Positions 18,783 to 19,844 of a DNA stretch of 24,964 nt are shown here, one piece after another. The notes beneath the pieces are model-generated. The model saw only the letters and a program-made list of their open reading frames with translations. It did not search any database and was not told the origin of the DNA. The translations under genes were made by a program, and so were the position numbers. Position 1 is the stretch's first letter, and every line of letters starts with the position of its first letter. Location: positions 1 to 24,964 of the forward strand of contig JAWCQV010000001.1 in assembly GCA_038869575.1 (NCBI GenBank), given 5' to 3'. The stretch comes from Candidatus Bathyarchaeia archaeon. GTDB taxonomy: Archaea > Thermoproteota > Bathyarchaeia > Bathyarchaeales > Bathycorpusculaceae.

Positions 18783-19238
18783 ATGAAAATGTCGGATTAC
18801 AGCCGCAGAAGACGCTCAATCTTCGACATAATAAATGAGTATTTTGAAAACTTTGAAGCATTGGCTGAAAGGGTAAGAGAAACCATTATGGAGAGACCCA
18901 GCTGGAACTGTAGAACATGCACCATGGAACCTTTAAGAGATATTATGGTAACAGCCAACGAAGTAGTAGTGACTGTTGACTTGCCCTACGCTGAGCAAAA
19001 CACAATAGAAGTTAAACCCATTGGCAAAGATATTATAGAGATTTCGGCTAAAATGAGGCGTAAAATAAGTTTTGACGATTTCGGTATAACTCATCATAGA
19101 GGCGAGTTCCAGAAGTTTTACTGCCAGACGAGGATTCCGGTGCCCGTCTACATGAACCGCATGGAAATCCGATTCAAGCGGGGACTATTAGAAATTCGCT
19201 TCCCGAGAAAACACGAGTACGAAATTCCGATAGAATGA
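18783..19238 (+). CDS. hsp20: Small heat shock protein (Hsp20/alpha-crystallin)
   Basis: EPLRDIMVTANEVVVTVDLP and RIPVPV...FKRGLLEIRFPR (alpha-crystallin GxLxI motif), C-terminal IPIE (IxI motif). Confidence 0.85.
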   Translation: MKMSDYSRRRRSIFDIINEYFENFEALAERVRETIMERPSWNCRTCTMEPLRDIMVTANEVVVTVDLPYAEQNTIEVKPIGKDIIEISAKMRRKISFDDFGITHHRGEFQKFYCQTRIPVPVYMNRMEIRFKRGLLEIRFPRKHEYEIPIE

Positions 19239-19300
19239 AGCCTCAGCTCTCCTCAGTCGTCGTCACAATTCAGACGGCTCTTCTTGCATCATTGGCTTCA
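19236..19300 (-). ncRNA. Box C/D 2'-O-methylation guide sRNA
   Basis: Minus strand 5'-UGAAGCC A AUGAUGC AAGAAGAGCCGU CUGA AUU GUGACGA CGACUGAGGAGAG CUGA GGCUUCA-3'. It has a 7-bp terminal stem, C box (6/7), 12-nt guide, perfect D', C' (6/7), 13-nt guide and perfect D. Confidence 0.85.
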
Positions 19301-19355
19301 AAAAAACAAAAGCAAAACAGACAAATAAGCTTAATGAAAAATGTAAATAAAAACT
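19301..19355 (-). terminator. U-rich tract downstream of aIF5A (candidate terminator and/or sRNA promoter region)
   Basis: Minus strand TTTTTATTTACATTTTTC...TTTTGCTTTTGTTTTTT immediately upstream of the sRNA. Confidence 0.35.
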
Positions 19356-19451
19356 GGCTATCTTGCTGAACGAGAAAAACAATTCTTGAGGTTTATAAGG
19401 ATCAAGTACAAAGGCGCTACACTAACATGAACTAGAGCAGTAGTGATCAAG

Positions 19452-19844
19452 CTATTTTGCTCTTACAATCTTAATTTTGCCAAGTATTTTCCAATATTCG
19501 ATTTCAACGCCGGGAGATAGCTTAGCCTTAAGCTCTTCCTCTTCAGGGTATGGCGCGTCCAAATATTCGTAGGTTTCTAAGTCCATAATCTGGACGCTCG
19601 TGGGTGTGACGGCGAAAATTTGCCCGCTTCTCTTTTCTATTATAGGCACTTCAGCTGTTGCATCTACAGGTTTAACGATACTTCTTTTAACACCGTCGAA
19701 GACGCCTATAGCAACTATTCGAGCCTTGGCGGAGCCATGCTTTCCCGGCTTAGATTTCGTTATCTCAACTATTCTGCATGGTTCACCATCAACTATAAGG
19801 TAGCCGCCTTCTCTTAGGCTTCCAACATCAACAGGCTTGCTCAT
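19452..19844 (-). CDS. eif5a: Translation factor aIF5A (eIF5A)
   Basis: Hypusination motif SKPGKHGSAKAR and IDGEPC-like region. SD GGTGATGAT upstream. Confidence 0.97.
   Translation of the reverse strand: MSKPVDVGSLREGGYLIVDGEPCRIVEITKSKPGKHGSAKARIVAIGVFDGVKRSIVKPVDATAEVPIIEKRSGQIFAVTPTSVQIMDLETYEYLDAPYPEEEELKAKLSPGVEIEYWKILGKIKIVRAK

Follow-up and report, generated by a model that had tools for sequence, protein, structure and literature searches.

Genomic setting of the locus

The window, by which we mean the whole stretch of 24,964 nucleotides analyzed here, stems from a hot-spring Bathyarchaeia MAG (757 kb in 120 contigs, 65% complete), and the sequencing runs containing it are hot-spring metagenomes. 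Its minus strand carries the gene for aIF5A (19452-19844; Pfam IF5A-like_N and eIF-5a), a neighbor conserved across Bathyarchaeia whose closest protein relatives, reaching 96% identity, belong to Candidatus Bathyarchaeia MAGs, many of hot-spring origin. On the same strand, and starting 152 nt downstream of this gene, lies a box C/D sRNA of 65 nt (19236-19300), as read from the sequence. A convergent ORF of 151 amino acids (18783-19238, plus strand) approaches from the other side, and its stop codon overlaps the final 3 nt of the sRNA. The ORF matched no Pfam family at E<=1e-3; in one genome of the same order it is kept beside a PAC2 gene, with 44% identity.

The spacing between the aIF5A stop codon and the sRNA ranges from ~40 to ~870 nt among close relatives (L047, L049, L053-L057 and others), compared to 152 nt in the window, with the sRNA standing at locus positions of about 1930, 2200 or 2750, a difference implying that about 0.3-0.7 kb has been inserted or lost between the two genes. 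A Bathyarchaeia-like aIF5A gene (82% identity) followed by this C/D sRNA is also present on L096 (DATHCJ010000047.1), which is labelled Candidatus Limnocylindrales bacterium and is probably a mis-binned archaeal contig.

Upstream of the sRNA, a promoter-like element, cAUUAAG-CUUAUUUG (19322-19336, minus strand), resembles a BRE plus TATA box. In an alignment of the upstream regions of genus and family homologs the motif TTCATTAAGCTTATTTGG is conserved in the genus and recognizable in neighboring genera, while the flanking bases vary, and the T/A-rich core of the element is centered ~25 nt before the first base of the terminal stem. We infer that this element is a BRE/TATA promoter, on which reading the sRNA would be a transcription unit of its own. 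One Logan contig of one metatranscriptome run spans 19061-19322, and no contig of the same run covers aIF5A. This contig could alternatively stem from the 3' terminus of the convergent mRNA or from carried-over DNA. The library was not size-selected, and, Logan contigs being strandless, the contig was not taken as evidence of transcription.

Architecture of the sRNA

Read on the minus strand from 19300 to 19236, the sequence is UGAAGCC-A-AUGAUGC-AAGAAGAGCCGU-CUGA-AUU-GUGACGA-CGACUGAGGAGAG-CUGA-GGCUUCA, i.e., a complete canonical archaeal box C/D sRNA, with C and D boxes joined by a terminal stem, internal D' and C' boxes and spacers of 12 and 13 nt. In the stem, UGAAGCC (19300-19294) pairs with GGCUUCA (19242-19236), and the MFE fold keeps all 7 bp. 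The C box AUGAUGC (19286-19292) differs from the consensus RUGAUGA by its final C; the whole box AUGAUGC is found in 76 of 94 homologs. It is followed by the 12-nt D' guide AAGAAGAGCCGU (19274-19285), the D' box CUGA (19270-19273; CUGA in 80/94 homologs and CGGA in 14/94), a D'-C' loop of 3 nt (AUU, 19267-19269), the C' box GUGACGA (19260-19266; homolog forms include GUGACGA, GUGAAGA and GUGAUGA), the 13-nt D guide CGACUGAGGAGAG (19247-19259) and the D box CUGA (19243-19246), which reads CUGA in 91/94 homologs. The plus strand at 19274-19285 is ACGGCTCTTCTT, so that the minus-strand RNA has AAGAAGAGCCGU and then CUGA; the D' guide that the first-pass annotation had proposed here is confirmed; it sits between C box and D' box inside a full C/D'/C'/D set closed by the 7-bp stem.

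At gathering thresholds, no Rfam family matched the window. A permissive scan of 19150-19400 returned sR2 (RF01139; 26.2 bits, threshold 42) and snoPyro_CD (RF00095; 24.5 bits, threshold 45), both sub-threshold and both over the full model length. Both families share their overall architecture of 55-60 nt with the window sRNA, and the likeness is one of boxes and spacing only. The sRNA is assigned to no curated Rfam C/D family, the best scores being sub-threshold and the matches those of generic C/D RNAs. An sR41 match of one distant homolog was likewise rejected as a box-level likeness.

Pairing of the D' guide with 23S rRNA

A search of the 65% complete source assembly for 23S and 16S rRNA found neither of them assembled, so that pairing was judged on the 23S rRNAs of congeners. 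Three of these (G005, G010, and G012) read GAUGUCGGCUCUUCCC, and, together with all other relatives recovered, they carry GGUACCUCGAUGUCGGCUCUUCC(C/U)AUCC. When the 23S and 16S rRNAs of G005 were scanned with the D' guide, the best match was 23S 2647-2658, UCGGCUCUUCCC. Here, guide positions 2-10 form nine consecutive Watson-Crick pairs with CGGCUCUUC (E. coli 2507-2515), the U at position 1 meets another U (U.U mismatch) and positions 11-12 face C and C (A.C). Guide position 5 (G19278) stands opposite C2651 of the G005 23S rRNA in a perfect G-C pair, and the place of C2651 within the universally conserved GAUGUCGGCUC context identifies it as the equivalent of E. coli C2510. The paired stretch CGGCUCUUC lies next to the PTC central loop; in the 23S secondary structure it forms the 5' strand of helix 90 and immediately follows the PTC nucleotides G2505 and U2506.

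In the same-genus 23S rRNAs, three elements of the first-pass annotation thus hold, namely the perfect pairing of positions 2-10 with a stretch of the PTC region, the unpaired nucleotide beside the D' box and the assignment of the C2510 equivalent by the D+5 rule. The extension of the duplex to 11 bp, which it had made dependent on UU at residues 2516-2517, fails: these residues are CC in the 23S rRNAs of congeners, and the duplex remains at 9 bp.

Dennis et al. (2015; PMC4644070) required of a target at least nine consecutive Watson-Crick pairs including N+5, and such a run is found at the 23S site as judged on same-genus 23S rRNA. The duplex of -16.6 kcal/mol is the best rRNA duplex found, compared to -15.0 and -13.2 kcal/mol for a site in 16S rRNA. 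A better target elsewhere, which the annotation had named as a possible refutation, was not encountered in rRNA, with the 16S site at -15.0 kcal/mol being nearly equal. Perfect 9-bp matches of positions 2-10 to the 4.6 kb of rRNA arose for 0.8% of shuffled and 1.5% of random guides.

We consider it probable that the D' guide directs 2'-O-methylation of the C2510-equivalent cytidine beside the PTC, a reading with good computational support. Speaking against this prediction, the duplex comprises only 9 bp, with positions 1, 11, and 12 unpaired, and the 65% complete source assembly itself is without rRNA, fibrillarin and Nop5. Searches for the latter two proteins did not find them in its assembled part; fibrillarin is present in all five near-complete genomes of the same genus (E about 1e-98).

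The rRNA genes of the relatives showed features of their own. In L009 (G010:C11:40085-43928), a same-genus 23S rRNA gene, the match extends over 3,844 nt compared to about 3,050-3,080 nt in other relatives, and the PTC motif is shifted by about 770 nt towards the 3' end, which suggests that ~0.8 kb, possibly an rRNA intron, has been inserted ahead of the PTC region. In the near-complete same-genus genome G005 (contig C1), the 23S (377263-380343, minus strand) and 16S (396773-398267, plus strand) genes are unlinked, ~16 kb apart. The 16S rRNA on L128 (G009:C119), from a MAG assigned to this genus, shares only ~88% identity with congeners over 190 nt and may belong to a mis-binned contig.

Conservation of the sRNA and its D' guide

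A recognizable copy of the sRNA, downstream of aIF5A, is present in 94 of 108 related loci, amounting to 77 unique sequences, and 66 of the 80 aIF5A loci of Bathyarchaeia have it downstream of the gene in the same orientation. The genome collections behind the two locus sets overlap, and some genomes are possibly counted twice. By DNA similarity, it was recovered from 12 of the 13 genomes of the genus, from most genera of the family and from other families of the order.

Conservation within the sRNA is uneven. The 10-mer GAAGAGCCGU is identical in 90/94 homologous loci, while guide positions 11-12, the 5'-most ones that face CC in 23S rRNA, vary between GA, AA, and AU. The C' box occurs in at least nine forms among the 94 loci (GUGACGA or AUGACGA in 44 of them, UGAAGA and UGAUGA in others), and the D guide appears as more than 40 different 8-mers across the same homologs, with boxes and D' guide retained. 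The invariant guide nucleotides (90/94) are hence those pairing with 23S rRNA plus position 1, and the remainder of the guide regions drifts. A fixed GAAGAGCCGU next to freely varying positions 11-12 and a freely varying D guide fits selection on the 23S target, and among the sequence comparisons made here this conservation is the strongest evidence for the predicted 23S target.

The same division is seen within single habitats. Many short metagenome contigs from the same springs (runs X1, X3, X5, and X9) match the window at 19259-19303 only, i.e., over the 5' half comprising stem, C box, D' guide, D' and C', and diverge exactly at the D guide, where some of them carry AAACCCAGCG. Coexisting relatives consequently share the frozen half of the sRNA and differ in the other.

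For a wider survey, 401 genomes of the phylum were searched for the exact 14-mer of guide and D' box alongside a reversed control pattern. Of 25 genomes sampled from the window's own family, 20 contain the 14-mer. Since the reversed control was also common, the 14 matches outside this family were inspected singly: four of them have C/D architecture, one in the same order (G326) and three outside the class (G385, G409, and G418), and the other ten were discarded as chance matches without C/D boxes around them. C/D sRNAs with this guide therefore also occur in three Thermoproteota families outside Bathyarchaeia. In the latter three genomes no aIF5A was found within 2.5 kb of the sRNA, and we abandoned the notion that aIF5A and a PTC guide have been functionally linked since ancient times.

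The near-equal 16S site has to be weighed against this pattern. The real or additional target of the D' guide could be 16S ACGGCUUUUC (428-437 in G005), with methylation of C432, and the D guide would then lie loosely on 433-444, its best rRNA match, in which position 7 is mismatched and two pairs are G:U. At 16S 428-439, ACGGCUUUUCCC, guide positions 1-10 are all paired with a single G:U at position 7 (-15.0 kcal/mol), and an A there, but not in 23S rRNA, offers a partner to the conserved U at position 1, so that 16S rRNA explains this position better. It also speaks for the 16S site that the sole near-match of the D guide in rRNA is directly adjacent to it. Moreover, the Ignicoccus target rows adjoining sR473 list 16S C443 beside 23S C2784, the same cross-match as that of the window guide (PMC4644070; the supplement text has no column layout).

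The 16S site lacks, however, nine consecutive Watson-Crick pairs, and the overlap of both 16S sites would keep D' and D guides from binding simultaneously, quite apart from the position-7 mismatch of the D guide. The ACGGC of the 16S site further sits in an apparent local hairpin, GCCGUCC...GGACGGC. Most other genera have AUGGCUUUU(C/A/G) at this site, which introduces a second G:U or a mismatch at position 10 (-13.2 kcal/mol or worse) although the guide is unchanged, and guide position 7 is always G, a Watson-Crick partner of 23S C2512 and a mere G:U partner of the 16S U. As the 16S site varies under a fixed guide with this position-7 G, we rank 16S ACGGCUUUUC as a possible, weaker second target and not as the selected one; as the real or additional target of the guide it appears rather unlikely.

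The D guide and a possible role in 23S folding

The second guide behaves differently from the D' guide. In the window's genus, the D guide (..UGAGGAGAG) is conserved in 32 loci, and a comparison with 23S and 16S rRNA yielded no 9-bp site. Neither did it match any of the 12 tRNAs found in the source MAG, and none of its perfect 10-mer matches in five same-genus genomes falls into a tRNA gene; these matches appear to lie in coding sequence. On these comparisons the D guide is an orphan in the genus, without a convincing rRNA or tRNA target.

Several other genera (G019, G020, and others) carry AAACCCAGCG as their D guide, which matches 23S GCUGGGUUUA perfectly over 10 bp, with the equivalent of G2581, 71 nt downstream of the D' target, as predicted target. 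Judged by these predicted targets, the AAACCCAGCG-bearing genera display a classic double-guide pattern, independently pointing to domain V. Going by the E. coli secondary structure, we take GCUGGGUUUA to be the opposite strand of helix 90, and the two sites of these sister genera would presumably be the two strands of this helix.

Such an arrangement could indicate that the sRNA mainly assists the folding of 23S domain V as a chaperone, holding the helix 90 strand open during assembly, with methylation secondary or absent. Archaeal double guides have in fact been proposed as chaperones (PMC4644070, section 11; PMC7994747), and the 23S sites of both guides in the sister genera are 71 nt apart. 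Against a chaperone as the main role, guide position 5 forms a perfect G-C pair and nothing suggests that methylation is blocked, and bridging is impossible in the window's genus, where just one of the guides matches 23S rRNA. We therefore hold this role to be improbable and retain guided methylation of the C2510 equivalent as the preferred interpretation.

Relation to known archaeal guides

As a predicted target, the site is not new for archaea. Both Methanopyrus kandleri sR7 and Ignicoccus hospitalis sR473 are predicted to act on 23S rRNA at alignment position C2784 (PMC4644070, Additional file 1), and because alignment position 2880 is E. coli C2606 in the same study, C2784 corresponds to C2510. 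Both sRNAs resemble the window sRNA in this predicted target, in RNP type and in the N+5 logic. They come, however, from different phyla without synteny shared with the Bathyarchaeia family, which is linked to aIF5A and differs from them in its second guide, and M. kandleri sR7 uses its D guide (GGAGAGCCGG-CGGA) where the window sRNA uses its D' guide. Guides containing AGAGCCGA in Sulfolobus acidocaldarius sR7 and M. kandleri sR45 pair with the same PTC-adjacent stretch of 23S rRNA; they are shifted by one nucleotide, so that their predicted target is G2783 (the G2509 equivalent) instead of C2510 (PMC4644070), and S. acidocaldarius sR7 combines this guide with one for the A-loop (U2552 equivalent).

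Relation to eukaryotic U49/SNORD49

In several eukaryotes, the corresponding nucleotide carries a 2'-O-methyl group. Human 28S Cm4456 (formerly Cm4426) is assigned to SNORD49A/B (PMC9941101), and Arabidopsis 25S Cm2880 was mapped by RiboMeth-seq and assigned to AtU49 (PMC8583080, PMC8053127). A review table lists the same site for tomato, tobacco and Ostreococcus and has no entry for yeast or Pyrococcus abyssi (PMC11542601). The equivalence of C2510, Cm4456, and Cm2880 follows from the shared GAUGUCGGCUCUUCC context and from the offset to the Um of the A-loop, which is 42 nt both in human (4498-4456) and in Arabidopsis (2922-2880).

That the window sRNA shares its site with human SNORD49 was claimed in the first-pass annotation and is supported here, as its predicted target is the equivalent of Cm4456. 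The annotation had also named a SNORD49 guide ending in GCCGU and a UGACGA C' box, and the Rfam consensus of SNORD49 (RF00277), GGAAGUGCCGU-CAGA followed by a C' box CUGACGA, bears this out. It had left open whether a shared guide or convergence accounts for the likeness; of these suggestions, the common target nucleotide stood and orthology did not. The SNORD49 model scores 21.5 bits on the window compared to a gathering threshold of 37, which is below two generic archaeal C/D models, and in the cmscan alignment only guide, D', C', and D are matched, with the C box of the model placed on non-box sequence. Seven distant homologs with the same guide reach 15.6 bits or less, and only one of them attains E<=1.

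U49/SNORD49 and the window sRNA agree in the rRNA nucleotide, in the guide lying upstream of D' and in the guide end GCCGU. The UGACGA C' box of U49 is also present in the window's genus; it is a trait of only part of the archaeal family, and the SNORD49 likeness is lost in other family members. Differences concern the guide, where the SNORD49 consensus has U at position 6, giving U.U with the target, and the archaeal guide has A, as well as the D' box, which is CAGA in SNORD49 and CUGA in the window sRNA. Eukaryotic U49 is moreover nucleolar, whereas the Bathyarchaeia sRNA is apparently served by an archaeal promoter of its own. Beyond the universal boxes and a guide dictated by its target, no similarity between SNORD49 and the window was found.

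A true U49/SNORD49 orthologue, inherited from an archaeal ancestor of eukaryotes, would readily account for the predicted identity of the modified nucleotide, the position of the guide upstream of D' in both RNAs and the similar guide cores (archaeal GAAGAGCCGU and SNORD49 GAAGUGCCGU). It would also agree with the age of U49 in eukaryotes, where it is known from human and Arabidopsis and the site is methylated in Ostreococcus as well, and with the presence of the guide in Bathyarchaeia and three other Thermoproteota families. The guide likeness is, however, dictated by a universally conserved target, the SNORD49 score is sub-threshold and vanishes in other members of the archaeal family, and the model C box is not placed on the C box of the window. 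Methanopyrus, in turn, hits the same site with its D guide and not with D', so that guides for the C2510 site can evidently arise or move independently, and archaeal guides evolve fast (PMC7994747). On these comparisons U49 orthology is not supported, as positive evidence beyond the shared target was not found, and we regard descent of the sRNA family from a common ancestor with U49 as improbable. Equally slim is the chance that the Bathyarchaeia sRNA, the same-guide sRNAs of the three other Thermoproteota families and U49 all go back to one ancestral C2510-methylating guide. If true, this guide would belong to the very small number of snoRNA lineages that can be followed across the divide between archaea and eukaryotes.

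Proposed function and significance

Starting from what was directly observed, i.e., the RNA architecture, its conservation, its complementarity to the 23S rRNA of relatives and fibrillarin in the genus, the sRNA would be transcribed from its own promoter downstream of aIF5A and would assemble with L7Ae, Nop5, and fibrillarin. In this RNP, the D' guide is predicted to pair with the nine 23S nucleotides CGGCUCUUC (E. coli 2507-2515), upon which fibrillarin would 2'-O-methylate the cytidine opposite guide position 5, the C2510 equivalent. In the window's genus, the D guide may be inactive or directed to some other RNA.

By its features and predicted target, the sRNA is an ordinary, well-conserved archaeal box C/D guide, and methylation of its C2510 site is already known or predicted elsewhere. 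A literature search found no Bathyarchaeia C/D sRNA described. The present one is a clean example from this class, conserved across much of it. One frozen PTC-adjacent guide next to a repeatedly replaced second guide also makes the family a good illustration of guide turnover.

A shared ancestral guide RNA is not shown by the Bathyarchaeia sRNA alone. What it would add is a broad archaeal lineage to the apparent methylators of the C2510 equivalent, which include human, Arabidopsis, and Ostreococcus on experimental grounds and Methanopyrus and Ignicoccus by prediction. Given that few Nm sites are common to archaea and eukaryotes, the predicted methylation in Bathyarchaeia would strengthen the case for C2510 as a functionally favored site.
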